DNA from: an uncultured Eggerthella sp. | GTDB taxonomy: Bacteria; Actinomycetota; Coriobacteriia; Coriobacteriales; Eggerthellaceae | Assembly: GCA_900546175.1 (NCBI GenBank) | Contig: URBX01000003.1 | Coordinates: 2,224 to 66,223, forward strand | Length of the DNA: 64,000 nt | Direction of reading: 5' to 3' | Part shown: positions 9,187 to 47,539 of the stretch, piece after piece | Position numbering within the stretch: position 1 is the stretch's first letter | Layout of the letters: each line of letters starts with the position of its first letter | Program-made: the position numbers and the translations under genes | Notes under the pieces: generated by a model | Databases searched by the model: none | What the model was told of the DNA's origin: nothing | The model's input: only the letters and a program-made list of their open reading frames with translations

Positions 9187-9396
9187 ATGAGCTACAAGGA
9201 ACTGATCAAGAGCGGCGCCGACGCGACCGACATCCAGCAATATCTGGTTGATGGCGAGATGACCGCCATCACCATCCGCATCCCGAAGAATCTTCGGGAT
9301 AGCGCTAAAGAAGCCGCAGAGCTTCGTGGAATGAGCTTCAGCACGTTGATCCGCAAGTGCATGATTGACGAGCTTTCGAATATCGAGAGGGGCTAG
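9187..9396 (+). CDS. Small ribbon-helix-helix (CopG/Arc-like) protein upstream of hsdM
   Basis: ITIRIPKNLRDSAKEAAELRGMSFSTLIRKCMIDEL: beta-strand plus two helices typical of RHH DNA-binding proteins; its stop is 1 nt before the hsdM ATG. Confidence 0.5.
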   Translation: MSYKELIKSGADATDIQQYLVDGEMTAITIRIPKNLRDSAKEAAELRGMSFSTLIRKCMIDELSNIERG

Positions 9397-9397
9397 C

Positions 9398-10978
9398 ATG
9401 GCTGACACCACTAAGGAACAGCAGCGCGCCGAGCTGCACAAAACAATCTGGTCCATCGCCGACGACTTGCGCGGCAGCGTGGACGGTTGGGACTTCAAGC
9501 AATACATCCTATGCACGCTCTTCTACCGCTTCGTGAGCGAGAACCTTTGCGCCTACCTTGCCGAGCAGGAAGGTGACCCCTCCTTCGACTACGCTTCCAT
9601 GCCTGACGACCAAGCCGAGTGGGGTCGCGAGGAGACCGTCAAGGAGAAAGGTTTCTTCATCCTTCCCAGCGAGCTATTCTGCAACATCCTCAAGCGCGTG
9701 GACAAGGACGGCATGCGCCTGACCGAGGATGGGCAGGACCTCAACGAGCTGCTGACCCAGGTATTTAAGAATATCGAGGGTTCTGCTGTTGGCACGGAGT
9801 CTGAGGGCGACCTCAAGGGCCTGTTCGACGACATGGACGTCAACAGCGCCAAGCTAGGCAACTCGGTCATCGAGCGCAACAAGAAGCTGGTGAAGCTCAT
9901 CTCCAAGATCGGCTCGCTGGACTTCGGCGGTGCCTTCCAGGACAACTCCATCGACGCCTTCGGCGACGCCTACGAGTTCCTCATGACCATGTACGCCTCC
10001 AACGCCGGCAAGTCCGGTGGCGAGTTCTTCACCCCGCAGGAGGTGGGCGAGCTTTTGGCGCGTATTGCCATCGGCGATCGCAAGAGCGTGAACAAGGTAT
10101 ACGACCCTTGCTGCGGCAGCGGTGGCCTGCTGTTGAAGTTTGCAAAGATCCTGGGCAAGGAAAACGTGCGCGGCGGATACTTTGGCCAGGAGATCAACCT
10201 GACCACCTACAACCTTGCCCGCATCAATATGTTCCTGCACGACGTGAACTTCGATAAGTTCGATATTGCGTTGGGCGATACACTCAAGGAGCCCGCCCAT
10301 TGGGACGATGAGCCATTTGATGCCATTGTTTCGAATCCGCCCTACTCCATCAAGTGGGAAGGCAAGGGCAACCCCCTCAACATCAACGACGCTCGCTTCA
10401 GTCCCGCAGGAGTTTTGGCGCCCGCCAGCAAGGCGGACCTAGCCTTCACCATGCACATGCTGAGCTGGCTTAGCACTGAGGGCACAGCCGCCATCGTCGA
10501 GTTCCCCGGCGTGCTCTACCGTGGAGGTGCCGAGGGTAAGATCCGCGATTATATGGTGCGCAACAACTTTGTCGAGGCGGTCATCCAGCTTCCGGCTGAC
10601 CTGTTCTTTGGTACCACCATTGCTACTTGCATCATCGTGCTTAAGAAGAACAAGAACGCAAGCAATGTGCTGTTCATCGACGCCAGCGAGCAGTTCGAGC
10701 GCCGCGACTCCAAGAACAAGCTGATGCCCGCTAACATCGACCGCATCATGGACGCAATCGCTGCGCGCGCAGAGGAGGATCACTTCTCCAAGCTGGTTTC
10801 CAATGACGAGATCTTGACAAACGACGCCAACCTGTCCGTTAGCTCTTACGTCGAGAAGAAGGACGAACGCGAGGAAATCGATATCGCCGAGCTCAATGCA
10901 GAAATCAAACGCATCGTAGCGCGTGAGCAGGAACTGCGCGAAAAAATTGACGCCATCGTGGCCAACTTGGAAGGCTAG
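9398..10978 (+). CDS. hsdM: Type I restriction-modification system, DNA methyltransferase subunit M
   Basis: N6-adenine MTase motif I DPCCGSGGLL and motif IV NPPYSIKW; HsdM N-terminal domain; start chosen at MADTTKEQQ with RBS GAGAGGGG. Confidence 0.92.
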   Translation: MADTTKEQQRAELHKTIWSIADDLRGSVDGWDFKQYILCTLFYRFVSENLCAYLAEQEGDPSFDYASMPDDQAEWGREETVKEKGFFILPSELFCNILKRVDKDGMRLTEDGQDLNELLTQVFKNIEGSAVGTESEGDLKGLFDDMDVNSAKLGNSVIERNKKLVKLISKIGSLDFGGAFQDNSIDAFGDAYEFLMTMYASNAGKSGGEFFTPQEVGELLARIAIGDRKSVNKVYDPCCGSGGLLLKFAKILGKENVRGGYFGQEINLTTYNLARINMFLHDVNFDKFDIALGDTLKEPAHWDDEPFDAIVSNPPYSIKWEGKGNPLNINDARFSPAGVLAPASKADLAFTMHMLSWLSTEGTAAIVEFPGVLYRGGAEGKIRDYMVRNNFVEAVIQLPADLFFGTTIATCIIVLKKNKNASNVLFIDASEQFERRDSKNKLMPANIDRIMDAIAARAEEDHFSKLVSNDEILTNDANLSVSSYVEKKDEREEIDIAELNAEIKRIVAREQELREKIDAIVANLEG

Positions 10979-10983
10979 TCAAA

Positions 10984-11796
10984 ATGGGAAATAAAGAAAC
11001 GCAGGCAGCTCACGAGCTAGCTATCCTCAACCATCTTAAACAGCTTTTATGCGAAGGATACAATCTGAAGCATTATTTTGCCTGCTCTCAAGATGATGTT
11101 GAATCCATCAAGGCGGCTCTTCTTTCGGCTGAACAGAATCAAGAAACCACTTTTCCTGATTTCTCTGCTGAGGCTTGCTGCATTGAGCTATTTGCTATTT
11201 CGTCTTCTGAGCAAGGAAAGAAATGCGGACCGCTTCAATCAAAGCAAGATGGCGACCTTCAGAGGACAATTGCCAATGATGATGAAAGGACGGCATTGGC
11301 CAAAAACGGCCAGACTCGCGTTTACACCCAAGTTCATCCCCAGCATAGCTACGAACATCTTTCCCGATCTCTGAGGGAAAACTTCGGGAGTCATCTGAAT
11401 AGCTTACGTCGATCTAAAAATGAATATCTGACAAGGATTTTCGTAGTCGAATATCCAGAAACCGACCTTCACTGCTTTTTTAGTCCAGATTCTGATTTGA
11501 GGTACGAAGGTCTCTGTATGGGTGATTTTACTGCCGAGTATTCTAATGGAAGAGATAACGGATTATATCGCTTGAGCAGGGATAAAGAGAATCTTAACTG
11601 GCTTGGTGAATACGCTGATGAGGTTGATTACGTAATTTTCCACGGAGTGCATTCCGTGGAAGTGATAAACCTGCACAACGTGGGACAAATAACAGGATTC
11701 CTTCCATGGCGCATGCGTTCTTATCCGGCGATGGCTATAACATATGCAACCTCAATCTTTCTAGGGTCGTTCGAGAAAGGCTCAAATAATGAATAG
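10984..11796 (+). CDS. Unknown 270-aa protein embedded between hsdM and hsdS; candidate RM-associated accessory/defence gene
   Basis: Starts 5 nt after the hsdM stop and its stop overlaps the hsdS ATG (ATGAATAG); visibly lower GC than the flanking hsd genes; no Walker, HNH or other clear motif; weak R-x5-H (RENFGSH) noted. Confidence 0.6.
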   Translation: MGNKETQAAHELAILNHLKQLLCEGYNLKHYFACSQDDVESIKAALLSAEQNQETTFPDFSAEACCIELFAISSSEQGKKCGPLQSKQDGDLQRTIANDDERTALAKNGQTRVYTQVHPQHSYEHLSRSLRENFGSHLNSLRRSKNEYLTRIFVVEYPETDLHCFFSPDSDLRYEGLCMGDFTAEYSNGRDNGLYRLSRDKENLNWLGEYADEVDYVIFHGVHSVEVINLHNVGQITGFLPWRMRSYPAMAITYATSIFLGSFEKGSNNE

Positions 11797-12937
11797 CATT
11801 GAAGGACTAATCGAACGGCTCTGTCCTGATGGGGTGGAATATAAGCCCCTAAGATCTATTGCCAAGATAGTTGGAGGTAAGGACTACAAACACCTTGCTG
11901 CAGGAAGTGTGCCTGTATATGGAAGCGGTGGCGTGATGACCTATGTCGATACTGCCGCATACGATAAACCTTCTGTCTTGCTTCCGCGTAAGGGGTCAAT
12001 TTCAAACGTGTTCTATGTTGATGGGCCGTTTTGGAATGTTGATACGGTTTTTTATACAGAAATTGACGAGTCACAAATAATGCCAAGATTCTTCTTTCAC
12101 GTGATTCTTGCCGAGCATATTGAGAAGTTAAACACATCAAACGCAGCGCGCCCTGCTTTGACGAGAACAGTGTTAGATAAGATTCAAATCCCTGTTCCTC
12201 CTCTAGAAGTCCAAGAAGAGATAGTGCGAATTCTCGATACCTTTTCAGAGCTAGAAGCAGAGCTAGAAGCAGAGCTAGAAGCAGAGCTAGAGGCGCGCAA
12301 GGCGCAGTATGCCTACTACCGTAGCAATATCCTCGGCAGGTGCGCCGACAAGGTTGCTCTTGGAAGTATTTGCAAATCGGTTTGCTCTGGTGGGACACCC
12401 AACAAAAAGAATCCTGAATACTACGAGAACGCTACTATTCCTTGGCTTCGAACGCAGCAGGTTGCGTTCAATGAGATATTCGAGGTCGACTCCTTCATCT
12501 CTGAAGCCGGATTGAAGGGCTCTTCTGCAAAGTGGATTCCTGCTAATTGCGTGATTGTCGCAATCTCTGGAGCAACCGCTGGGCGATGCGCGATCAATAA
12601 GATTCCGCTAACGACAAACCAACACTGTCTGAACATGGAAATTGATGAAGCTGTTGCAGACTACAGGTATGTTTACCACTGCGTCTGCAATCAAAACGAG
12701 GAGCTTCTTTCAAAGAAAGAGGGTGCTCGCGGAGATTTGAATGCTTCGCGAATCAAGAGTCTCGAAATTCCTCTGCCTTCTCTGGAAGAGCAGCGTTCCA
12801 TTGTGGAGATACTCGACAATTTCGACAAACTTTGTGGAGATATCACGCAGGGTCTTCCCGCGGAAATCGAGGCGCGCCGCAAGCAGTATGCCTACTATCG
12901 CGACAAGCTCCTGACCTTCAAGGAGAAGAAAGCATGA
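11789..12937 (+). CDS. hsdS: Type I restriction-modification system, specificity subunit S
   Basis: Two target-recognition domains separated by a conserved central region; two repeated conserved segments (ELEARKAQYAYYRSNIL and EIEARRKQYAYYRDKLL) typical of the HsdS internal duplication. Confidence 0.9.
   Translation: MNSIEGLIERLCPDGVEYKPLRSIAKIVGGKDYKHLAAGSVPVYGSGGVMTYVDTAAYDKPSVLLPRKGSISNVFYVDGPFWNVDTVFYTEIDESQIMPRFFFHVILAEHIEKLNTSNAARPALTRTVLDKIQIPVPPLEVQEEIVRILDTFSELEAELEAELEAELEARKAQYAYYRSNILGRCADKVALGSICKSVCSGGTPNKKNPEYYENATIPWLRTQQVAFNEIFEVDSFISEAGLKGSSAKWIPANCVIVAISGATAGRCAINKIPLTTNQHCLNMEIDEAVADYRYVYHCVCNQNEELLSKKEGARGDLNASRIKSLEIPLPSLEEQRSIVEILDNFDKLCGDITQGLPAEIEARRKQYAYYRDKLLTFKEKKA
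12248..12295 (+). repeat. In-frame 12-bp tandem repeat (GAGCTAGAAGCA x3 plus GAGCTAGAGGCG) encoding ELEA x4 in the hsdS central conserved region
   Basis: Read directly from the sequence: SELEAELEAELEAELEARKAQYAYY. Confidence 0.85.
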
Positions 12938-15900
12938 GCGAATTCGAATACGGACATACGAAGGTTCCAGAGCCGCAGAATACCGCCTCGTTGGCGGATG
13001 ATTTGCCTAGCAACGTCGACTTTGACGTCATGGCTTTTGGCGGTCAGGCGACAGTCTGTTCCGCGCTGCCGAAGCAGCAGAAACGCTCAACATCGTATCA
13101 GTCAGAAGCCCAACTGGAGGACGCTTTCATAAAGCAGCTCTGCCGTCAGGGCTACGAGAGACTCGTCATCTCCAGCGAAGGTGACCTTATTGCCAACCTG
13201 CGTAGGCAGCTCGAGGCCTTGAACCGCATCTCCTTCTCCGACAAGGAGTGGTCCCGCCTGTTCAAGGGATGGATCGCCGCGGACAACGACGGCATCGTCG
13301 AGAAGACCCGCCGCATCCAGCGCGACCACGTCTACGCCCTGCAGATGGATGACGGATCCGTGCGCAACGTCTCCCTCATCGACAAGCGCAACGTGCACAA
13401 CAACCGCATGCAGGTGATGAACCAGTACACCCAGGAAGGGACCTACGAGAACCGCTACGACGTGACGGTACTGGTGAACGGCCTGCCGCTCGTGCACATC
13501 GAGCTCAAGCGCCGCGGCGTTGCCATCCAGGAGGCCTTCAACCAGATCGAGCGCTACCAGCGCGACAGCTTCTGGTCCGGCTGCGGCCTGTACGAGTACG
13601 TGCAGATCTTCGTTATCTCCAACGGAACCCACACCAAGTACTACTCCAACACCACGCGCTTTTCCGCCATCGGGGAGCGAGCCGGCAAGAAGACCCGCGG
13701 CAAGAAGACTTCCAACAGCTTCAAGTTCACCAGCTGGTGGGCCGATGCTGACAATATGCCCATCTTCGACCTGGTGCCCTTCACCGCCACCTTCTTCGCC
13801 AAGCACGCGCTGCTGAACATCCTCACGAAGTACTGCGTCTTCGACGTGGACGAGAAGCTACTAGTCATGCGCCCGTACCAGATCGTGGCCACCGAGCGCA
13901 TATTGAACCGCATCCTCATCAGCGAAAACGACAAGTCCATGCTGGGCACCCTGCGTGCCGGCGGCTACATCTGGCACAGCACGGGATCGGGAAAGACGCT
14001 CACCAGCTTCAAGACCGCACAGCTCGCCAGCCAGATGGCAGGCGTGGACAAGGTCATGTTCGTGGTGGACCGCAAGGACCTGGACTACCAGACCATGCGC
14101 GAGTACGACCGCTTCGAAAAGGGTGCTGTGGACGGCAGCGAGTCCACGGCCGTACTGTCCAGGCAGCTTGCCGACCCGGACTGCCGCATCCTGGTGACCA
14201 CCATCCAGAAGCTCTCCTGCTTCATCAAGAAGAACAATAAGCACGACGTCTATGCGCAGCACTGCGTCATCATCTTCGACGAGTGCCACCGTAGCCAGTT
14301 TGGCGACATGCACGTGGCCATAACCAGGCACTTCAAGAACTACCACCTGTTCGGCTTCACCGGCACGCCGATCTTTGCGGAAAACGCCAGCAGCGGCAAA
14401 GTGGCAAACTTGAGAACCACCGAGCAGGCCTTCGGCGACAAGCTGCACACCTACACCATCGTGGACGCCATACGCGACGAAAACGTGCTGCCGTTCAGGG
14501 TGGACTACATCAAGACCATCCGGGAGCGCGACCAGTACGAAGACCAGAAGGTCTACGACATCTACCGCGAGGGCGCCTACAAGGCAGCTGCTCGCGTGGA
14601 CCTGATTACCAACTACATCCTTGACCACTACGCTCAGAAGACCAAGCGCACGAGCAGCTACGACTTCAAGGGCCAGCGCGTCATGGGCTTCAACTCCATT
14701 TTCGCCACAGCCTCCATCGACATGGCGAAGGTGTACTATTCTGCCTTCAAGCGCATCCAGGCCGAGCGCGCCGGCGAGAAGCTGAAGGTTGCCCTCATCT
14801 ACAGCTTCGGCCCCAACGAGTCCGACGATGGCTGCGGCCTTCCTGATGAGAGCTTCGACGTGGCCAGCCTGGACACCCCGAGCCGCGACTTCCTGGAGGC
14901 CGCCATCGGCGACTACAACGCCATGTTCGCAACCAGTTTCGACACGAGCTCGCAGGGCTTTCAGAACTACTACAAGGACCTGTCGGACCGCATGAAGAAG
15001 CGCCAGGTGGATTTGACTATCGTGGTCAACATGTTCCTCACCGGCTTCGACGCTACCACCTTGAACACGCTCTGGGTGGACAAGGACCTCAAAGACCATG
15101 GCCTCATCCAGGCCTTCAGCCGTACCAACCGCATCCTCAACTCCGTAAAGACCTACGGAAACATCGTGTGCTTCCGCAACCTGGAGGACCGCGTGAGCCA
15201 CGCCATCAGCCTGTTCGGCGACAAGGAGGCGGGCGGCGTGGTGCTGCTCAAGCCCTATGCTGAGTACCTTGCCGAGTACAACGACCGCCTGGACCAGCTG
15301 CGAGAGCAGTTCCCGCTTGAGGCGATTCTTTCCGGTGCCGTCATCATGGGCGAGGAACAGCAGAAGGCGTTCATCCGGCTGTTCGGCGTGATCTTGCGCC
15401 TGCGCAACATCCTCACCGCCTTCGACGACTTTGCCGAGGACGATTCTCTGAGCCCGCGCGACGAGCAGGACTATCGCAGCGTCTACACCGATTTGTACCA
15501 GAAATGGCGCGGGGAGAAGGAGGACGCCACCATCATCAACGACGATCTCGTCTTCGAGATCGAGCTTCTGAAGCAGGTCGACATCAACATCGACTACATC
15601 TTGATGCTGGTGCAGAAGTACCACGACTCCAACTGCACCGACAAGGTAATCATTGGTGACATCGAACGCGCCATCTCCGCCAGCTACGAGCTGCGCAACA
15701 AGCGCGACCTCATCCATGCGTTCATGGACAGCCTTGTCTCCAGCAACGACGTCGCAGCCGACTGGGAGAAGTACGTGGCAGAAGCCAAGGAGCGCGAGCT
15801 CTCTGCGATCATCGCCGAGGAGGCCTTGGACGAGGCTGCTACACGCGAGCTGATGGCCAACGCCTTCGCTGACGGAGGAGTTCCCGAGAGCGGCACCGAG

Positions 15901-16026
15901 GTGGCAAACCTGATGACCAAGAAGCCGAGCCGATTCGCTCCGGCAAACGCATACGCAGACATGAAGGCCCGAGTGCTTGAACGCTTGAAAGGGTTCTTTG
16001 AGCGATTTAGTGGATTAGGGAAATAG
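12934..16026 (+). CDS. hsdR: Type I restriction-modification system, restriction endonuclease subunit R
   Basis: SF2 helicase motifs HSTGSGKTLTSF (Walker A) and IIFDECHRSQ (DEAH box); about 1030 aa; its ATG overlaps the hsdS stop (ATGA). Confidence 0.92.
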   Translation: MSEFEYGHTKVPEPQNTASLADDLPSNVDFDVMAFGGQATVCSALPKQQKRSTSYQSEAQLEDAFIKQLCRQGYERLVISSEGDLIANLRRQLEALNRISFSDKEWSRLFKGWIAADNDGIVEKTRRIQRDHVYALQMDDGSVRNVSLIDKRNVHNNRMQVMNQYTQEGTYENRYDVTVLVNGLPLVHIELKRRGVAIQEAFNQIERYQRDSFWSGCGLYEYVQIFVISNGTHTKYYSNTTRFSAIGERAGKKTRGKKTSNSFKFTSWWADADNMPIFDLVPFTATFFAKHALLNILTKYCVFDVDEKLLVMRPYQIVATERILNRILISENDKSMLGTLRAGGYIWHSTGSGKTLTSFKTAQLASQMAGVDKVMFVVDRKDLDYQTMREYDRFEKGAVDGSESTAVLSRQLADPDCRILVTTIQKLSCFIKKNNKHDVYAQHCVIIFDECHRSQFGDMHVAITRHFKNYHLFGFTGTPIFAENASSGKVANLRTTEQAFGDKLHTYTIVDAIRDENVLPFRVDYIKTIRERDQYEDQKVYDIYREGAYKAAARVDLITNYILDHYAQKTKRTSSYDFKGQRVMGFNSIFATASIDMAKVYYSAFKRIQAERAGEKLKVALIYSFGPNESDDGCGLPDESFDVASLDTPSRDFLEAAIGDYNAMFATSFDTSSQGFQNYYKDLSDRMKKRQVDLTIVVNMFLTGFDATTLNTLWVDKDLKDHGLIQAFSRTNRILNSVKTYGNIVCFRNLEDRVSHAISLFGDKEAGGVVLLKPYAEYLAEYNDRLDQLREQFPLEAILSGAVIMGEEQQKAFIRLFGVILRLRNILTAFDDFAEDDSLSPRDEQDYRSVYTDLYQKWRGEKEDATIINDDLVFEIELLKQVDINIDYILMLVQKYHDSNCTDKVIIGDIERAISASYELRNKRDLIHAFMDSLVSSNDVAADWEKYVAEAKERELSAIIAEEALDEAATRELMANAFADGGVPESGTEVANLMTKKPSRFAPANAYADMKARVLERLKGFFERFSGLGK

Positions 16027-16035
16027 AGAGCAAGA

Positions 16036-17847
16036 ATGAAAAACTGTTATAGCGTAACCACATATTCAGTCCAGTCCGTCCTGGGCTACATCAACGCCGG
16101 AGACATCGCAATCCCGGAGATCCAGCGTCCGTTCGTCTGGTCGAAGACCCAAGTCCGCGACCTCGTGGACTCCCTTTTCCGCGGATATCCAACCGGCTAC
16201 CTCATTACCTGGAAGAACCCGGACGTCAAGGTCAAGGGCGGTGGAACGGCCGAGGGAAAGAAAGTGCTTATCGACGGCCAGCAGCGTGTGACCGCCATCA
16301 TGGCCGCGCTTGCCGGACAGCAGGTTCTAAACGAGGATTACGAGCTCGGCCCTATCAAAATTGCATTCAACCCCCTCTATGACGGCGAGGACAGCCCGTT
16401 CGAGGTCCTGACTCCGATCATCGAGCGCGACACGAAATGGGTATCCGATATCTCCGAGCTCTTCCAGCCCGGAGCCAGCACGTTCAAGTTCATCACGGAG
16501 TACATCAAGGCCAATGAGGGCTGCGATGCCGACAAGGTCAGCGCGAGCATCGAAGAGCTCACATCCATCGCGATGCGCCAGCTCGGCGTCATCGAGATCG
16601 ACGCATCCTGCACGATTGACGAGGTCACCGACATCTTCATCCGCATCAACTCGAAGGGAGCGGTGCTCTCCCAGGCTGACTTCGCTATGTCCAAGATCGC
16701 CGCAGATGAGGCCCACGGCGGAAACATGCTGCGCAAGGCGATCGACTACTACTGCCACCTGGCGGTAAAGCCGGAATTTTGGTCAACCATCAGCGTGCAG
16801 GACCCCGACTACATGGCGAGCGAGTACGTTGCGAAGACCGAGTGGTTGAAGGACGACAAGGACGATATCTACGACCCCGATTACAACGACGTCCTGCGCG
16901 TCGCCTTTATGTACAAGTTCGGTCGAGGCAAGCTCGCAGACCTCGTCGCACTCCTCTCGGGACGAGACTTCGAGGCCCGCGACTACAAGGCTGAGATCGC
17001 CGACGAATCCTTCGCCAAGCTCCATGACGGCGTCCTGCGCTTCATGGACAAGAACAACTTCCAAGATTTCGTTCTTGCGTTGCGCTCGGCAGGTTTCGTG
17101 AGCCCATCGATCATTTACTCGAAGGGCGCGATTAACTTCGCGTACAACCTCTATCTCACGCTACGCGAGGATCCTTCCATTCCTTCAACCGACGTCAAGC
17201 GCTGGGTGCAGCGCTGGTACGTCATGTCCGTCCTGACGGGTCGCTACTCTGGTTCTTCAGAATCCGTCATGGATCGTGACATCAGGCGCATCTCCGAACA
17301 GGGATTCCTCTCTTTCTACGAGGAAGTTGCCCAGGCACAGCTTTCCGACACTTTCTGGGAGGTCAACCTTCCTCAGGCGCTGAACACCACCAGCACCCGT
17401 ACTGGTGCTTGGCTTGTGTATCTGGCGTCCCAGGTACGATCTGCGAACAATACACTGTTCACGAACGGCGTCAAGGTGAGCGATGTCGTTGCCACCATCG
17501 GCGACATTCATCACATCTTCCCAAAGAACTACCTAAAGAAGGAGCTTGACGCGCAGAAGGGCCTTTACAACCAGGTCGCGAACTACGCTTACCTCGAGAA
17601 GCGCATCAACATCAAAATCGCCGATAGGAGGCCGGGAGACTACTTCACCGAGGCGCTAGATGCCTGCAGCGCAGGTTCTACATACTTCGGCGACATCGCC
17701 AAGGTTGATGATCTGTATGCCAACATGGCCGAAAACTGCATTCCCGAAGATATCTTTGACATGGGAGCCGAGGACTACAGGGAGTTCCTCTCTAAGCGTC
17801 GTCAGCTTATGGCAGCTAAGATCAGGGATTATTTCAAGGGACTGTAG
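16036..17847 (+). CDS. DUF262 (ParB-like nuclease N-terminus) / DUF1524 (HNH-like C-terminus) protein, GmrSD-family Type IV modification-dependent restriction enzyme-like
   Basis: N-terminal IPEIQRPFVW and LIDGQQRVTAI (DGQQR motif of DUF262); C-terminal IGDIHHIFPKNYL (His-Me finger of DUF1524); 10 nt downstream of hsdR. Confidence 0.85.
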   Translation: MKNCYSVTTYSVQSVLGYINAGDIAIPEIQRPFVWSKTQVRDLVDSLFRGYPTGYLITWKNPDVKVKGGGTAEGKKVLIDGQQRVTAIMAALAGQQVLNEDYELGPIKIAFNPLYDGEDSPFEVLTPIIERDTKWVSDISELFQPGASTFKFITEYIKANEGCDADKVSASIEELTSIAMRQLGVIEIDASCTIDEVTDIFIRINSKGAVLSQADFAMSKIAADEAHGGNMLRKAIDYYCHLAVKPEFWSTISVQDPDYMASEYVAKTEWLKDDKDDIYDPDYNDVLRVAFMYKFGRGKLADLVALLSGRDFEARDYKAEIADESFAKLHDGVLRFMDKNNFQDFVLALRSAGFVSPSIIYSKGAINFAYNLYLTLREDPSIPSTDVKRWVQRWYVMSVLTGRYSGSSESVMDRDIRRISEQGFLSFYEEVAQAQLSDTFWEVNLPQALNTTSTRTGAWLVYLASQVRSANNTLFTNGVKVSDVVATIGDIHHIFPKNYLKKELDAQKGLYNQVANYAYLEKRINIKIADRRPGDYFTEALDACSAGSTYFGDIAKVDDLYANMAENCIPEDIFDMGAEDYREFLSKRRQLMAAKIRDYFKGL

Positions 17848-17949
17848 CCTGCTAGGGGAGGGTTTGTGGAGTCAGCTCTACCCCGCCCTCCTTCGGTTTT
17901 ACTTAAAGGCTTAAGCGAATTACAACACCCACAAACCACCCGCTCAAAA

Positions 17950-18568
17950 ACTCATCTTTTGTCACAGGGAAAACGGCCCGTGACAACATTTTGACAACAT
18001 GGATTTTCGCGAATTTTGTTTAACGCAACAGTCGCACAAAAATTGATAGCCGGCTGAGTGAAGCTATCATTTTCACCGTTATTCTGATTCTTCGTTTTTA
18101 TCAAGCGCCAATATTGCTCTAATGTAAATAGCAACAGCCTGTTTTAGACCAACAACTTCCTGAGCCTCGTTAACCTGATGGCCTGAGCCAACACCTTCCG
18201 GCAAAGGACCTAATCCAAATCTTCCCGGACCAAATCCAAGAGCGCCTGGAATATAGCGCGCATGAGTTGCTCCCCCCCATAGCATAGGGCCTTAGCGAAA
18301 CCCCCAGCTCTTCGTTAACAATAGCAGTGAGCAATTCAACCTTTTCGTCCTGAGGATTAACAAAATGAGACTTGCTAGACGATTCGATTTCTACCTCAAA
18401 ATGAGCATTATTAAACGTCCGAAAAACATTTCGCACAACCCATTTCTCTTCAACTACTGAAGGGTATCTAATATTTAAAGTAACTTGAAAGGTGCCTTTG
18501 TCGTAGGAAGCGAAAACGGGAACAGCCGTAGTGTCTCCCAAAAAGTCATCGTGAACCGATATTTCCAA
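17950..18568 (-). pseudogene. M20-family peptidase (dipeptidase) 3' fragment, 5'-truncated and frameshifted at a C7/G7 homopolymer
   Basis: Two adjacent minus-strand ORFs (18170-18568 and 18079-18285) together read ...LRPYAMGG / ATHARYIPGALGFGPG...HQVNEAQEVVGLKQAVAIYIRAILAL (M20 C-terminal H-x-x-NE motif); the frames are joined across the tract tcccccccat at about 18271-18277; only about 200 aa remain where about 450 are expected. Confidence 0.5.
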
Positions 18569-18620
18569 AGCGCTTCCGTCATAACAAGTGCAAACTGCTT
18601 AGCTTTTACCTCTTGGCTTT

Positions 18621-18678
18621 TGCTACCTATCCAAGCATAGATAGGTAGCGTTCGCCAGTGTCGGGAAGAATAACAATA
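18621..18678. repeat. Duplicated copy of the cysK 3' terminus (direct repeat partner of 21678-21733)
   Basis: ctatccaagcatagataGgtagcgttcgccagtgtcgggaagaataacaa versus ctatccaagcatagataGatagcgttcgccagtgtcgggaagaataacaa at the real cysK end; one mismatch over about 52 bp; on the minus strand it encodes ...ILPDTGERYLSMLG*. Confidence 0.75.
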
Positions 18679-18689
18679 CTATTGAGTTC

Positions 18690-19415
18690 TTATTTTTCTA
18701 GCACCTTGCAGATCTGATAGGCCATGTCCAGGTTCTTTGAGACATAGTTCATTGCGTCCACAAACTCCTGCTCGAAGAAGTTTTCGACCAATCTGCCAAA
18801 CAAACTGTCAGGACGATCATGCGTCACAAGATCAAGCATCTTTTCTTTGCCTACAGCTTCCTGCTGATGCGCTGCAAACTCTGCAATTCTCTCGGACTGC
18901 TTTTTAATATCTTCGCCCTTGTATTTTCCGTTAAGCTCCAGGCCTCTTCTGGATATAAGCCTCAATCCTGATATTCTAGTAATTATTGTTTCACGGTTTA
19001 GCTGACACTCTATGTGTTTTGCATACGGATGAGTTGTTTTGATATGCACGATGATGTTGTAACGCCAGAACACCTTGTCGAAATCTTCCATTTTCAGGCT
19101 TTCCTGCATTGGTTCTCTGATTGCGAATTTATCAGGTTTTTCTGTCCAATATTCATCAACTTCCACATAGGCTTCTTTCACCTGATCGAAATCAACGATG
19201 TATGGATTCTTTGACTTGAAATCATCTTCAGGACCCTCAACAACAACAAAGCACTTGCGTCCTTCATCATAGATGAACTGCATGGCATCTGGAAATTCTT
19301 TCATTCCCAGGGCCGCGGTCATATCAAATTCGCTTTCCAATCTCTTGAGATTCTCCTCCTGAAAAGCTTTTTTCTCCTCTTTTCCTTTGCGCATGAAGTC
19401 AAAAAGTCCCATAGC
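18690..19415 (-). CDS. Hypothetical protein (about 241 aa)
   Basis: Start chosen at MGLFDFMRKGKEE with RBS AAGGAGGAG; no recognisable domain. Confidence 0.55.
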   Translation of the reverse strand, partial: AMGLFDFMRKGKEEKKAFQEENLKRLESEFDMTAALGMKEFPDAMQFIYDEGRKCFVVVEGPEDDFKSKNPYIVDFDQVKEAYVEVDEYWTEKPDKFAIREPMQESLKMEDFDKVFWRYNIIVHIKTTHPYAKHIECQLNRETIITRISGLRLISRRGLELNGKYKGEDIKKQSERIAEFAAHQQEAVGKEKMLDLVTHDRPDSLFGRLVENFFEQEFVDAMNYVSKNLDMAYQICKVLEK

Positions 19416-19581
19416 TGGTCTCCTCCTTAGTTGAGAAGATGTCTGCCTCTTTTTTGTAAGAGGCATTCAGCACTATCGACAGTATGACAGACCGAAGAAA
19501 TTATTGCATGATTTAGACACAGACATGATGCATTTTTTGTCATACTTCTCTCTATCACGGTTTTTTGCAAAGGAGGCATTC

Positions 19582-19899
19582 ATGGGATTGTTTGGCCTAT
19601 TCGGATCCAACATCAACAAGGACGTCGAAGAGTGCCGCGCCACTGAGGGCGCTGTATTAATTGATGTTCGCAATGAAGAAGAATATGAACAGGGGCACAT
19701 CCCTGGTGCTATCAATATTCCCCTGAGCACCATTGGTCTTGTTCTTGAGAAATACCCAAAAAAGGACATTCCGTTGTTCGTATATTGTCTCAGCGGAGGC
19801 CGCAGCGGACAGGCAGTAAGCTACCTCAAGCAGGCAGGTTACACCAATGTTAAAAACATCGGTGGCATAGGCAGCTATACAGGAAAGCTGGTGCGCTAG
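19582..19899 (+). CDS. Rhodanese-domain (sulfurtransferase-like) protein
   Basis: RBS AGGAGG plus ATG; active-site loop YCLSGGRSG; single rhodanese domain of about 105 aa. Confidence 0.8.
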   Translation: MGLFGLFGSNINKDVEECRATEGAVLIDVRNEEEYEQGHIPGAINIPLSTIGLVLEKYPKKDIPLFVYCLSGGRSGQAVSYLKQAGYTNVKNIGGIGSYTGKLVR

Positions 19900-19901
19900 T
19901 C

Positions 19902-21593
19902 ATGAAGATTGTCATTGTTGGTGGCGTAGCTGGTGGCGCATCTGCAGCAGCTCGTCTTCGCCGTCTTGATGAGCAAGCAGAAATCATCATCTTCGAAAAA
20001 TCAGGATTTGTATCCTATGCTAACTGCGGCCTGCCGTACTACATTGGCGGTATCATTACCGAGCAGTCAGCACTTACTCTGCAAACACCAGAAAGCTTCT
20101 GGAAGCGCTTTCATATCCAGGTTAAAGTCAATCACGAAGTCACTGCGATTAAACCAGAAAACCATACCGTGTCGGTTCGCAATCTAACAACAGGTGAAGA
20201 CTTCGTTGAAACGTACGACAAGCTAATCTTGTCCCCTGGAGCAAAGCCCACTCGGCCCCCACTGCCAGGCATTAATTCCAACAAAATATTCAGCTTGCGC
20301 ACCGTGGAGGACACTTTGCGCATCCATGACTATGTACAGGAGCATAAACCCCAAAGTGCGGTTTTGGTAGGCGGCGGCTATATTGGCATTGAAGTGGCGG
20401 AAAACCTTCGCGAATTAGGCATAAGCGTTACCATTGTTCAGCGTCCTTGTCAGCTGATGAACACTCTAGACTACGATATGGCCACCCTTGTCCATGCGGA
20501 AATGCGCCGCAAGGATATTACACTTAAGCTCGGTAGCAGCGTAATAGGCTTCCGAGAAGAAAACGACCAAATAATCACCGAACTTAAAAACGAGAGCGAA
20601 ATTCCAGCCGATTTAGTTCTGCTCGCTATTGGAGTTACTCCAGACACCGCTTTAGCGAAAAACGCTGGACTTAAATTAGGCATCAAGGAAAGCATTGTGG
20701 TGAATGACCGCATGGAGACTTCCATCCCTGACGTGTATGCAGTGGGTGACGCAGTGCAAGTCAAGCATCAAGTTACTGGCGAAGATGCCGTGATTTCCCT
20801 TGCGGGTCCCGCGAATAAGCAGGGTCGCATTGCTGCCGATACTATCTGCGGACAAGAAAGCCACTATCGTGGATCATTAGGTTCTTCCGTTATTAAGATT
20901 TTCGATCTTACGGTGGCCAGCACCGGCATGACAGAGAAGGCAGCAAAAGCGGCAAGAATTAACTATGACCGTGTCGTTCTGTCGCCTAGCTCCCATGCAG
21001 GATACTATCCAGGCGCTAAGCCAATGACCATGAAAGTAGTCTTCGAAAAAGAAACTCTTCGCCTACTAGGTGCCCAAATTATTGGTGCCGATGGCGTAGA
21101 CAAGCGCCTTGATGTATTGGCAACTGCTATCCAAGCAGGCATTCCTGCAGACAAACTGAAGGATCTTGATCTAGCCTACGCTCCTCCCTACTCTTCCGCT
21201 AAGGACCCCGTCAATATGGCCGGATTCATGATCGAAAACCTGCATGCTGGCTTAGTTAAACAATGGCATTGGGATCAGGAGCCTCTCTTGCCACGAGATG
21301 GCAGCGTTACTTTATTAGATACGCGCACCGCTGCAGAATACGAACGTGGCCACATTAACGGCTTTGTCAATATCCCCGTGGATGATTTGCGTGAGCGTTT
21401 GAGCGAAATCGAACTTGCGAAGCCGGTTTATGTAATCTGTCAAAGTGGCCTGCGCAGCTACATTGCTTGCCGAATCTTAAGCCAAAAAGGTTACGATTGC
21501 TACAACTTCTCTGGCGGATATCGCTTTTATGCCGCTGTTACCCAAGAAAAACAAGCCAGCGAGAATGTTTTTCCGTGCGGTATGGAACGCTAG
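19902..21593 (+). CDS. CoA-disulfide reductase / NADH oxidase family flavoprotein with a C-terminal rhodanese domain (CoADR-RHD)
   Basis: FAD motif IVIVGGVAGGASAA; redox-active Cys in SYANCGLPY; second dinucleotide motif VLVGGGYIGIEVA; C-terminal rhodanese with YVICQSGLRS. Confidence 0.85.
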   Translation: MKIVIVGGVAGGASAAARLRRLDEQAEIIIFEKSGFVSYANCGLPYYIGGIITEQSALTLQTPESFWKRFHIQVKVNHEVTAIKPENHTVSVRNLTTGEDFVETYDKLILSPGAKPTRPPLPGINSNKIFSLRTVEDTLRIHDYVQEHKPQSAVLVGGGYIGIEVAENLRELGISVTIVQRPCQLMNTLDYDMATLVHAEMRRKDITLKLGSSVIGFREENDQIITELKNESEIPADLVLLAIGVTPDTALAKNAGLKLGIKESIVVNDRMETSIPDVYAVGDAVQVKHQVTGEDAVISLAGPANKQGRIAADTICGQESHYRGSLGSSVIKIFDLTVASTGMTEKAAKAARINYDRVVLSPSSHAGYYPGAKPMTMKVVFEKETLRLLGAQIIGADGVDKRLDVLATAIQAGIPADKLKDLDLAYAPPYSSAKDPVNMAGFMIENLHAGLVKQWHWDQEPLLPRDGSVTLLDTRTAAEYERGHINGFVNIPVDDLRERLSEIELAKPVYVICQSGLRSYIACRILSQKGYDCYNFSGGYRFYAAVTQEKQASENVFPCGMER

Positions 21594-45481: not shown

Positions 45482-47539
45482 ATGAATGATTCCCAAGAAA
45501 AATTTTTGCCAGTATCCCCTGCCGATATAAAAAAACGCGGCTGGGATTCCTGCGATTTTGTTTACCTTTGTGGTGACGCCTATGTGGATCACCCTTCATT
45601 CGGCATGGCAATCATTACCCGCACTCTCGAAGCAAATGGCTATAAAGTAGGCATAATAAGCCAGCCCGATTGGAAAAATCCTGCAAGCATTTCTGCTCTA
45701 GGCAAGCCTCGTCTTGGGTTTCTGGTTTCAGCAGGCAACATGGACTCCATGGTTAATCATTACACCGTAGCGAAAAAGCGGCGGAAAACAGACTTCTACT
45801 CACCCGGTGGCAAAATTGGATTACGCCCTGACAATGCCTGCGTAGTATACGGAAATCTTATTAAGCGCGTATACAAAGATGTCCCTATTATTCTTGGCGG
45901 AGTAGAAGCCTCATTAAGAAGACTTGCTCATTACGACTACTGGGCTGACAAACTCAAACGTTCAATTGTTCTTGATGCAAATGCCGACATGGTGCTGTAT
46001 GGCATGGGGGAACTGAGCATTGTAGAAGTTGCAGATGCACTCAATGCAGGTATCCCCATTTCAGAAATAACCTGGATTAAAGGAACTGTCTTTCGCACAA
46101 AAAATCCCGCTATTGCTTACGAGGGAATAGCTCTTCCTTCCTATGAAGAGATGGTAAGCAACAAAATTAACTATGCGAAAAGCTTCAAAATTCAATATCA
46201 AAATCTAGATCCGTATAAAGGAAAGCCTCTTATTGAGCACTATGAAACAGATGCTCTGTACGTAGTGCAAAACCCAGCACAACGGCCACTTTCCACTTCA
46301 GAGATGGATGCCACCTATCGTCTTCCCTACGCTCGCACCTATCATCCTACCTATGAAAAAGATGGAGGAATTCCTGCCATTAAGGAAGTTAAGTTCAGCT
46401 TAACAAGCAATAGAGGATGCATGGGCGAATGTGCCTTCTGTTCCCTTGCGTTTCACCAGGGAAGAATTATTCAAAGCAGAAGCCATGAGAGCATCATTGA
46501 AGAAGCTCAAGAGATGATAAAAGATCCCGAATTCAAGGGATATATCCATGATGTTGGCGGTCCAACAGCAAACTTTAGGGAACCCGCCTGTCCAAAACAA
46601 ACTGAAAAAGGCGCCTGTACCAATAAACGCTGCCTTAGCCCAAAACCATGCAAGAGTCTTCGCGTGAACAACCGTGACTACTTTGAGCTCTTACGAAAGC
46701 TTCGCAAACTTCCTGGTGTTAAGAAAGTATTTGTGCGCAGTGGGATTCGTTTCGACTACCTTCTTTATGACAAACACGGAAAAGAATACCTCAAGGAACT
46801 GGCGCAATACCATGTGAGCGGACAGCTACGTCTTGCTCCCGAACATGTAAGCAACGAGGTTCTTGCGCTTATGGGCAAACCTTCCCACGAACTCTATCAG
46901 GAATTTGTTTCAGAATTTAATAAGGCTAACGAAGAGCTGAATCTAAAACAATACATCCTTCCCTATCTTATGAGTTCGCATCCTGGCTCCACCTTAAACG
47001 AGGCTATTGAGCTTGCTGAATTTTGCAGAGATATGGGTTTCAATCCAGAACAAATTAGCGATTTTTACCCTACTCCAAGCACTATTAGCACCTGTATTTA
47101 CTACACAGGGGTTGACCCTCGAACTATGAAAGAAGTATATTGCCCTCGCAATCCTCATGAGAAGGCAATGCAAAAAGCACTTATTCAGTATAGAAATCCT
47201 GCAAACAAGAAGCTGGTTTTAGAGGCGCTACGTCGTGCTGGTAGAGAAGATTTAATTGGCTACGAAAAGCATTGCCTTGTCCGCCCAGAAAAGCCAGGTT
47301 CCCGTAAGTTTGACCAGAGCAAGCCAAACACTCATACGTCAAACAAACAAAAACCTGGCTCTCAAAAATCAAAGCATTCTCAACAGGCTCAGAGCAAGCA
47401 CAATCCGTCTAGGCAGTCACAGGGCAAGCACGTTCCATCTAGACAGACACAGGGCAAGCAAGAATTATCCCAGAATGCCAACCATAAACCTGCCCCAAAC
47501 AAGAGCAGAAAAAACACTGCCCGTTCAAAACGTTCATAG
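45482..47539 (+). CDS. ygiQ: YgiQ-family radical SAM protein (UPF0313) with a basic low-complexity C-terminal tail
   Basis: YgiQ N-terminus (DFVYLCGDAYVDHPSFG), radical SAM CxxxCxxC (CMGECAFC); tail with QSKHNPSRQS/QGKHVPSRQT repeats. Confidence 0.85.
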   Translation: MNDSQEKFLPVSPADIKKRGWDSCDFVYLCGDAYVDHPSFGMAIITRTLEANGYKVGIISQPDWKNPASISALGKPRLGFLVSAGNMDSMVNHYTVAKKRRKTDFYSPGGKIGLRPDNACVVYGNLIKRVYKDVPIILGGVEASLRRLAHYDYWADKLKRSIVLDANADMVLYGMGELSIVEVADALNAGIPISEITWIKGTVFRTKNPAIAYEGIALPSYEEMVSNKINYAKSFKIQYQNLDPYKGKPLIEHYETDALYVVQNPAQRPLSTSEMDATYRLPYARTYHPTYEKDGGIPAIKEVKFSLTSNRGCMGECAFCSLAFHQGRIIQSRSHESIIEEAQEMIKDPEFKGYIHDVGGPTANFREPACPKQTEKGACTNKRCLSPKPCKSLRVNNRDYFELLRKLRKLPGVKKVFVRSGIRFDYLLYDKHGKEYLKELAQYHVSGQLRLAPEHVSNEVLALMGKPSHELYQEFVSEFNKANEELNLKQYILPYLMSSHPGSTLNEAIELAEFCRDMGFNPEQISDFYPTPSTISTCIYYTGVDPRTMKEVYCPRNPHEKAMQKALIQYRNPANKKLVLEALRRAGREDLIGYEKHCLVRPEKPGSRKFDQSKPNTHTSNKQKPGSQKSKHSQQAQSKHNPSRQSQGKHVPSRQTQGKQELSQNANHKPAPNKSRKNTARSKRS

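Follow-up and report, generated by a model that had tools for sequence, protein, structure and literature searches.

A tetrapeptide repeat of the TAEL, LEAT, SEAL or TSEL type within HsdS's central conserved region is a hallmark of type IC restriction-modification systems (PMC10030836). In EcoR124, two TAEL units specify GAA N6 RTCG and three specify GAA N7 RTCG, the change having occurred via unequal crossing-over, and EcoDXXI hybrids behaved as predicted (PMC3874165). These data bear out the premise of the initial annotation of the DNA studied here, namely that the passage from two to three copies of the 12-bp TAEL repeat in EcoR124I and EcoR124II alters the target's non-specific spacer from N6 to N7. 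According to the review of Loenen et al., three units, the state of EcoR124II, EcoDXXI and EcoPrrI, represent an apparent optimum (PMC3874165). The natural alleles of NgoAV in Neisseria gonorrhoeae, studied by PacBio sequencing, recognize GAC N6 TGC with one LEAT unit and GAC N7 TGC with two (PMC6789123). One repeat unit thus corresponds to one base pair of spacer, both in EcoR124I/II (PMC3874165) and in NgoAV (PMC6789123). In Mycoplasma pneumoniae, 12-bp hsdS repeats encoding AELS or TELS vary between strains and between passages (PMC4537597). A survey of repeats in hsd genes excluded units divisible by three, which its authors named as a limitation (Atack et al., 2020; PMC7383803); in-frame 12-bp repeats were therefore left uncounted.

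The window, i.e. the whole stretch of 64,000 nucleotides analysed here, carries on its forward (+) strand an operon in which hsdM (9398-10978), an open reading frame of 270 codons referred to as orf270 (10984-11796), hsdS (11789-12937) and hsdR (12934-16026) follow one another with overlapping or adjacent junctions. The gene order of the type IC family is hsdM-hsdS-hsdR, and the presence of orf270 is a departure from it. Classically, the type IC family is defined by subunit complementation or antibody cross-reaction. As judged from protein comparisons, the operon is a type IC restriction-modification system of the EcoR124I family, since HsdR carries an EcoR124_C domain and HsdM is far closer to the M subunit of EcoR124 than to that of EcoKI. 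Indeed, HsdR (1030 residues; its ATG overlaps the hsdS stop codon in ATGA) contains HSDR_N, SWI2_SNF2, T1R_D3-like and EcoR124_C domains according to Pfam (E 1.6e-65 for the latter), and phmmer aligned it with the HsdR of EcoR124I (2w00/4bec) with an E value of 1.2e-247. HsdM (526 residues in public records, the reading frame opening at a TTG at 9365) has the Pfam domains HsdM_N and N6_Mtase; it matched the EcoR124 M subunit (7bst_D) with an E value of 3.4e-181 and the HsdM of EcoKI with only 5e-16. HsdS itself, with 382 residues, contains two Methylase_S stretches (Pfam, E 6e-49) and matches the PADLOC Specificity_I model from end to end (E 2e-115). Its layout, a first target-recognition domain (TRD1), a central helix, TRD2 and a C-terminal helix, with conserved regions that are alike, is that of type IC subunits, and its central conserved region carries a tetra-amino-acid tandem repeat, ELEA x4 or EAEL x3 according to the register.

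The other genes around hsdS deserve a short description. No match was found for orf270 in Pfam, NCBIfam, PADLOC or PHROGs. It is probably co-transcribed with hsdS because it overlaps the hsdS start by 8 nt. Of 160 related loci, 5 have an orf270 homologue immediately upstream of hsdS (45% identity, E 9e-72, in L149; 24-29% in L073, L070, L114 and L120), and the gene looks like a recurrent accessory gene inside type IC operons. It was also observed that hsdR is absent from the public gene calls of the window's contig and of its copies. Two antisense reading frames without Pfam hits are called instead, at 13102-13806 (-; 234 residues) and 13861-15717 (-; 618 residues); automated annotation would thus show the system as incomplete. 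Ten nucleotides past hsdR starts a gene (16036-17847, +; 603 residues; PADLOC HEC-05, E 6e-33) encoding a GmrSD_N-domain protein, a probable modification-dependent nuclease judging from this match; since it adjoins the type I system, the two would form a small defence island. Directly upstream of hsdM, a ribbon-helix-helix protein of 69 residues (9187-9396, +) resembles RelB/YlcI (NCBIfam, E 4e-07; weak Pfam match to DUF6290) and could be a regulator or an orphan antitoxin.

The base composition of the first ~18 kb of the window (49-59% GC) is higher than that of the remainder (40-49%, typically about 43%); by gene, GC content is 57% in hsdM, 59% in hsdR and 47% in hsdS. The proteins clustered with HsdM at 90% identity come from Eggerthellaceae (Paraeggerthella, Eggerthella, Adlercreutzia and Slackia). 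Together, the GC step and this cluster suggest horizontal acquisition. No integrase or tRNA gene was found within the 64-kb window.

The repeat within hsdS was found as the initial annotation had described it, a 12-bp element in four copies, each encoding ELEA, at 12248-12295 on the + strand, with exact letters and coordinates. The units at 12248-12259, 12260-12271 and 12272-12283 are each GAGCTAGAAGCA; the fourth, at 12284-12295, is GAGCTAGAGGCG, which differs from the others in having G instead of A at unit positions 9 and 12. The units are in register with the codons of the reading frame 11789-12937 (+), and their product, ELEAELEAELEAELEA, corresponds to residues 154-169 of HsdS. At the DNA level, the perfect period-12 tract is slightly offset from the ELEA units: it spans 12246-12291 (+), that is 46 nt or 3.8 copies with 100% matches, and its Tandem Repeats Finder score of 92 is the second highest of the 64-kb window. 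The highest score (100) belongs to a 30-nt tandem repeat at 47383-47460 (2.6 copies, 81% matches), which falls within the C-terminal tail of a protein of the radical-SAM type (45482-47539; Radical_SAM_N, DUF3362). A misalignment by one unit in the hsdS tract has 34 nt of homology to use. In 64 kb, 3e-16 lag-12 runs with 34 or more matches are expected, and across 100 shuffles no lag-12 tract was longer than 24 nt. The repeat is therefore far beyond chance. The fold of the single-stranded tract is unremarkable (z 0.22), with no feature favouring slippage beyond the direct repeats themselves, and hairpin-promoted slippage was accordingly rejected.

The position of the repeat within HsdS could be defined by comparison with a known structure. 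In a phmmer search of all PDB chains, the top-scoring match of HsdS was the S subunit of EcoR124 (7bst_A, E 1e-45). An AlphaFold2 model of HsdS built on 41 homologues (pLDDT 91) retrieved HsdS structures with Foldseek, 7bst_A among them. In this model, TRD1 (residues ~1-138) is followed by one continuous helix, D1, of 45 residues (139-183; DNA 12203-12337, +), which is the central conserved region also delineated by the EcoR124 HsdS alignment and has the repeat at its centre. TRD2 (residues ~184-331) is followed by a second long helix, D2, of 43 residues (332-374; DNA 12782-12910, +), in the C-terminal conserved region; D2 would be the antiparallel partner of D1. The phmmer alignment places the ELEA repeat residue for residue on the TAEL repeat of EcoR124, the sole gap there being one 4-residue unit (aligned query segment ILDTFSELEAELEAELEAELEARKAQY; longer form ILDTFSELEAELEAELEAELEARKAQYAYYR). 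Both the alignment and the D1 helix of the model thus agree with the earlier proposal that the repeat occupies the position equivalent to that of TAEL.

The same alignment gives the count in the register of EcoR124. The HsdS repeat is exactly one unit longer than that of the solved 7bst_A chain, which has two TAEL units. If the linker is measured as the stretch that separates the R of R(K/R)xQY from the conserved F of ILDxF, its length is 17 residues in the central region of the window's HsdS and 13 in that of the EcoR124I chain. In the C-terminal region of the window's HsdS, 17 residues are also counted; the D2 segment is fixed at this length, which is the D1 value of the window allele. Read in the EcoR124 register, ELEA x4 becomes SEL + EAEL x3 + EA, with SEL where EcoR124 has TAL. 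The count of four ELEA units stands, but not the step beyond EcoR124II which it might seem to represent, because the textbook comparison of two versus three units uses another register, in which the window allele has three EAEL units. From this alignment, the window allele is equivalent in length to the three-unit state of EcoR124II, that is the N7 class, and is not a fourth state. Since, in the phmmer alignment, nothing in the EcoR124I chain corresponds to TRD1 and its resemblance to TRD2 is only distant, the half-sites and the absolute spacer are not predictable from EcoR124I.

A further feature of the two conserved regions is that parts of D1 and D2 (12281-12333 and 12860-12912) share 72% DNA identity over 53 nt and form a direct repeat, D4, whose copies lie 579 nt apart. 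By analogy, this repeat could mediate a deletion of TRD2 leading to a half-size HsdS that would recognize a palindrome; such forms have reportedly been described for truncations of EcoR124I and EcoDXXI.

The window lies on a human-gut metagenome contig of 257,876 bp (ERZ910663, run ERR688514), which is also deposited as the metagenome-assembled genome GCA_900758085.1; these copies are 100% identical over the stretches retrieved. In a contig of another assembly, k111_40522 of ERZ27229342 (29 kb; L005/L009), the locus is present but lacks one 12-bp unit and encodes an HsdS of 378 residues. Compared with the window across 10064-20717, this contig shows a single gap of exactly 12 nt, inside the repeat, and the remaining ~10.5 kb are identical; one ELEA unit is the sole difference between the two HsdS proteins (378 versus 382 residues). 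All 21 mismatches are packed in the first 130 nt of the contig (window 10064-10195, inside hsdM), and either reflect a chimera at the contig end with a second hsdM allele of the sample or mark a recombination breakpoint in hsdM. The initial annotation had proposed that hsdS alleles be compared for copy number and that an invariant number would speak against a switch. The number is not invariant: three ELEA units are found on this contig versus four in the window, and five other groups of alleles are polymorphic (see below). At the window's own locus, the polymorphism is an assembly-level observation, consisting of one event on one short-read metagenome contig (k111).

The other searches for alleles of this hsdS gave the following picture. 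In the protein database, the nearest orthologue, P0001 (76% identity), has the same TRDs in a different genomic context and two units fewer. No match was obtained with hsdS by megablast against E. coli genomes and plasmids, nor with a DNA pattern made of the repeat's flanks and a variable gap in viral contigs; among JGI metagenome contigs, no hsdS allele closer than 60% identity was seen. An exact-sequence lookup of synthetic HsdS variants of 1-7 units in a 15-billion-protein collection returned none of them, including the n=4 and n=3 positive controls, so that no weight is given to their absence. In the window's own run, a k=31 Logan contig (ERR688514_73383; L006) ends inside the repeat, at 12275. 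This break was rejected as evidence of heterogeneity, since a period-12 tract of 46 nt necessarily interrupts a graph built with k=31. Assemblies of the Logan type cannot report copy number for such repeats, and the corresponding hsdS protein record is cut to 162 residues.

The distribution of linker lengths was examined in 160 relatives, 80 from species-representative genomes and 80 from metagenome contigs, among which 137 have a central region of the repeat type. In these 137 loci, the linker has 17 residues in 74 cases, 13 in 52, 9 in 7 and 5 in 4. Other lengths were not observed, and in particular none above 17, so that the linker is never longer than its D2 partner and the window's value is the ceiling of the census. 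The unit peptides are mostly ELTA (TAEL), then ELEA, ELTT, ELQA and ELSA. Almost all relatives have near-maximal perfect period-12 DNA runs, the 46 nt of the window being typical. Within a gene, units encoding the same peptide differ by 0.34 nt per 12 (272 of 385 pairs are identical), versus 1.3-2.4 nt when the same peptide unit is compared between genes. This homogenization of units within genes is a signature of concerted evolution and fits with a continuing turnover of units.

Turnover is also visible when close alleles are compared. When the repeat is left aside, 189 pairs among 247 HsdS sequences share at least 95% identity; 163 of them have equal lengths and 26 differ by one unit. These 26 pairs represent five independent allele groups besides that of the window. 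In the Faecalibacterium group, linkers of 17 and 13 residues are found. In the Bifidobacterium pseudocatenulatum group (13 versus 9), P0018 and P0039 are identical apart from one ELEA unit, the first protein being found on 190 contigs and the second on 5. Besides P0018 and P0039, one-unit pairs within the five groups are L043 versus P0073-80, L096/97 versus L099/104, L127 versus L134/148 and L163 versus P0085. Between L097 and L099, the change is a clean 12-bp indel; the surrounding 4.4 kb are 99.5% identical and contain 4 SNPs. In these two contigs, a (GACA)n tract just downstream of the hsdS region (~3390-3439 in L097, ~2687-2736 in L099) also differs, by two units; the locus has two independent hypervariable tracts, the TAEL-type repeat and (GACA)n.

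Several views on the behaviour of the window's tract may be drawn from these comparisons. One repeat indel against no substitution in ~10.5 kb suggests, as a single observation, that the mutation rate of the tract is far above that of a nucleotide site. Because the indel was seen once and because 163 of the 189 near-identical pairs are equal in length, the tract is regarded as a contingency-type hypermutable site with a modest rate, high-frequency phase variation not being demonstrated. The possibility raised at the outset that this hsdS could switch specificity by repeat copy number is therefore established only in an evolutionary or population sense of the word switch, not in that of high-frequency phase variation. 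With 17 residues as the longest linker among the relatives, a five-unit form of the gene would probably not be viable, and the window allele can probably, from a functional point of view, only contract, from 17 to 13 and then to 9.

In the mechanism that we propose, D1 and D2 would form an antiparallel coiled coil holding the two target-recognition domains apart, and each 12-bp unit would lengthen D1 alone by four residues, or about one turn of the helix. Near-identical DNA units would permit misaligned recombination or replication slippage, by which whole units would be gained or lost in frame. The window allele, with its 17 residues (the equivalent of three TAEL units), would correspond to the long state of EcoR124II, EcoDXXI and EcoPrrI, and the variant with one unit fewer (13 residues) to that of EcoR124I. 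By homology, the window and three-unit alleles would then recognize the same two half-sites, placed one base pair closer together in the shorter form. The change would probably occur at random, with a low to moderate frequency, and not as a programmed switch operating at high frequency. Taken as a whole, the reading of the locus as a type IC D1 tetrapeptide repeat, in which gain or loss of units changes the spacer, is considered likely; within it, we infer by analogy the spacer change, the mutational mechanism and the activity of both states. Switching of hsdS by inversion or exchange of cassettes is excluded here: a tblastn search of the 64-kb window with HsdS found only hsdS itself and no extra cassettes, the inverted repeats of the window are weak (17-25 nt at 76-88%), and no recombinase was found among the reading frames scanned in the window.

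Other explanations may be envisaged. The repeat might be a static structural feature of the coiled coil, with a copy number that is effectively fixed, the difference between three and four units being an artefact of short-read assembly. Such a view would fit with the finding of the three-unit form on one contig only, with the known difficulties of assemblers with tandem repeats and with the break of the k=31 contig within the tract. However, both assemblies ended with k-mers (k127 and k111) longer than the tract of 46-48 nt, so that a collapse would be unlikely. Moreover, a clean one-unit indel recurs in five other groups, with different assemblers and with protein records supported by many contigs, units are homogenized within genes, and closed genomes of published isolates vary likewise (PMC4537597, PMC6789123). 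An artefact is thus very improbable. An opposite view would make the repeat a programmed high-frequency phase-variation device, maintaining mixed methylation in every population and controlling a phasevarion. The absence of any substitution beside the repeat indel and the homogenized units might be read in this way, as might the variation of M. pneumoniae between laboratory passages (PMC4537597). Yet, the tract has only 3.8 units, whereas known high-rate tracts are usually longer; the window lacks a dedicated recombinase, and neither significant inverted repeats nor silent hsdS cassettes are present; and the large share of equal-length pairs among those at least 95% identical is at odds with frequent switching. 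This device is, like the artefact, given very little credence.

A further possibility, hardly more probable than the two preceding ones, is that the change in copy number is real but mostly inactivates the enzyme or relaxes its specificity instead of shifting it cleanly from N(x) to N(x-1), which would make the repeat an on/off or attenuation device, or a mere mutational liability. Unusual repeat numbers are said to have given promiscuous recognition in the work of Gubler and Bickle in 1991. It should also be considered that the fit of an extra turn in one helix only of the coiled coil is a puzzle even for EcoR124 (PMC3874165), and that one NgoAV strain with an intact hsdS carrying one LEAT showed no methylation (PMC6789123). 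Against this, the 13-residue state is EcoR124I's own and that of 38% of the related loci, the reading frames of which are all intact, and specificity shifted exactly as predicted in EcoR124I/II, in the EcoDXXI hybrids and in NgoAV (PMC3874165, PMC6789123). On balance, gain or loss of units with a change of spacer remains the preferred reading.

Concerning the significance of these observations, the mechanism is already well known, the window repeat is another type IC example and the understanding of how type I enzymes work is unchanged. What appears modestly new, from the sequences compared, is the frequency of one-unit changes in gut commensals and their limit at the length of D2; the data suggest that gut type IC systems commonly undergo such changes and that existing assemblies reveal them. 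The published survey of hsd repeats explicitly left open the gap concerning in-frame units (PMC7383803). By analogy with the known systems, two nearly identical strains probably methylate and restrict different sets of sites, N(x) versus N(x-1). If so, a single 12-bp event would create a barrier to DNA exchange and alter phage susceptibility. In a broader and more tentative perspective, which we would not yet favour, spacer toggling by TAEL-type repeats may be more than an oddity of some model systems and may continually and pervasively diversify the methylomes and restriction of human-gut commensals, including Eggerthellaceae, Bifidobacterium, Faecalibacterium and Clostridia. The basis for this view is the occurrence of six independent one-unit groups in ~250 sequences, together with the near-identity of units in almost every lineage, the restriction of the linker to 5, 9, 13 or 17 residues within the length of D2, and the exclusion of such units from the only systematic survey of hsd repeats.

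Finally, the locus may be placed among the known ways of varying HsdS. Invertible hsdS systems of the SpnD39III type lead to the same end result, a heritable stochastic change in specificity, but need inverted repeats, extra TRD cassettes and a recombinase, none of which is present in the window. Frameshifting simple sequence repeats in hsdS (Atack et al., 2020) also lead to this result, but they do so by truncating HsdS. In M. pneumoniae, as in the window, the 12-bp unit lies in the first dimerization helix (PMC4537597, PMC8836594); however, copy numbers reach 16-33 there and hsdR is broken, whereas the window's family never exceeds the equivalent of three TAEL units. In NgoAV, also of type IC, strains differ in the number of tetrapeptide units and LEAT resembles the window's ELEA read in another register. 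NgoAV has in addition a poly-G frameshift switch that truncates HsdS, whereas in the window's hsdS neither a homopolymer nor a frameshift tract was seen; among the relatives, L097/L099 combines a TAEL-type repeat with its variable (GACA)n tract. With respect to EcoR124I and EcoR124II, from the E. coli plasmid R124 (EcoR124II being EcoR124/3), several differences are apparent. The unit is EAEL/ELEA instead of TAEL, and the TRDs are unrelated or only distantly related, so that the target differs. The locus is chromosomal, in a GC-rich segment of a human-gut bacterium of ~43% GC, whereas EcoR124 is carried by an enterobacterial plasmid. Unlike EcoR124, it also has an extra reading frame of 270 residues between hsdM and hsdS. 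Nevertheless, all three subunits belong to the same family, and the two systems share the D1 position, the unit of 12 bp or 4 residues and the linkers of 13 and 17 residues. In both cases, the alleles differ solely by the gain or loss of one unit.
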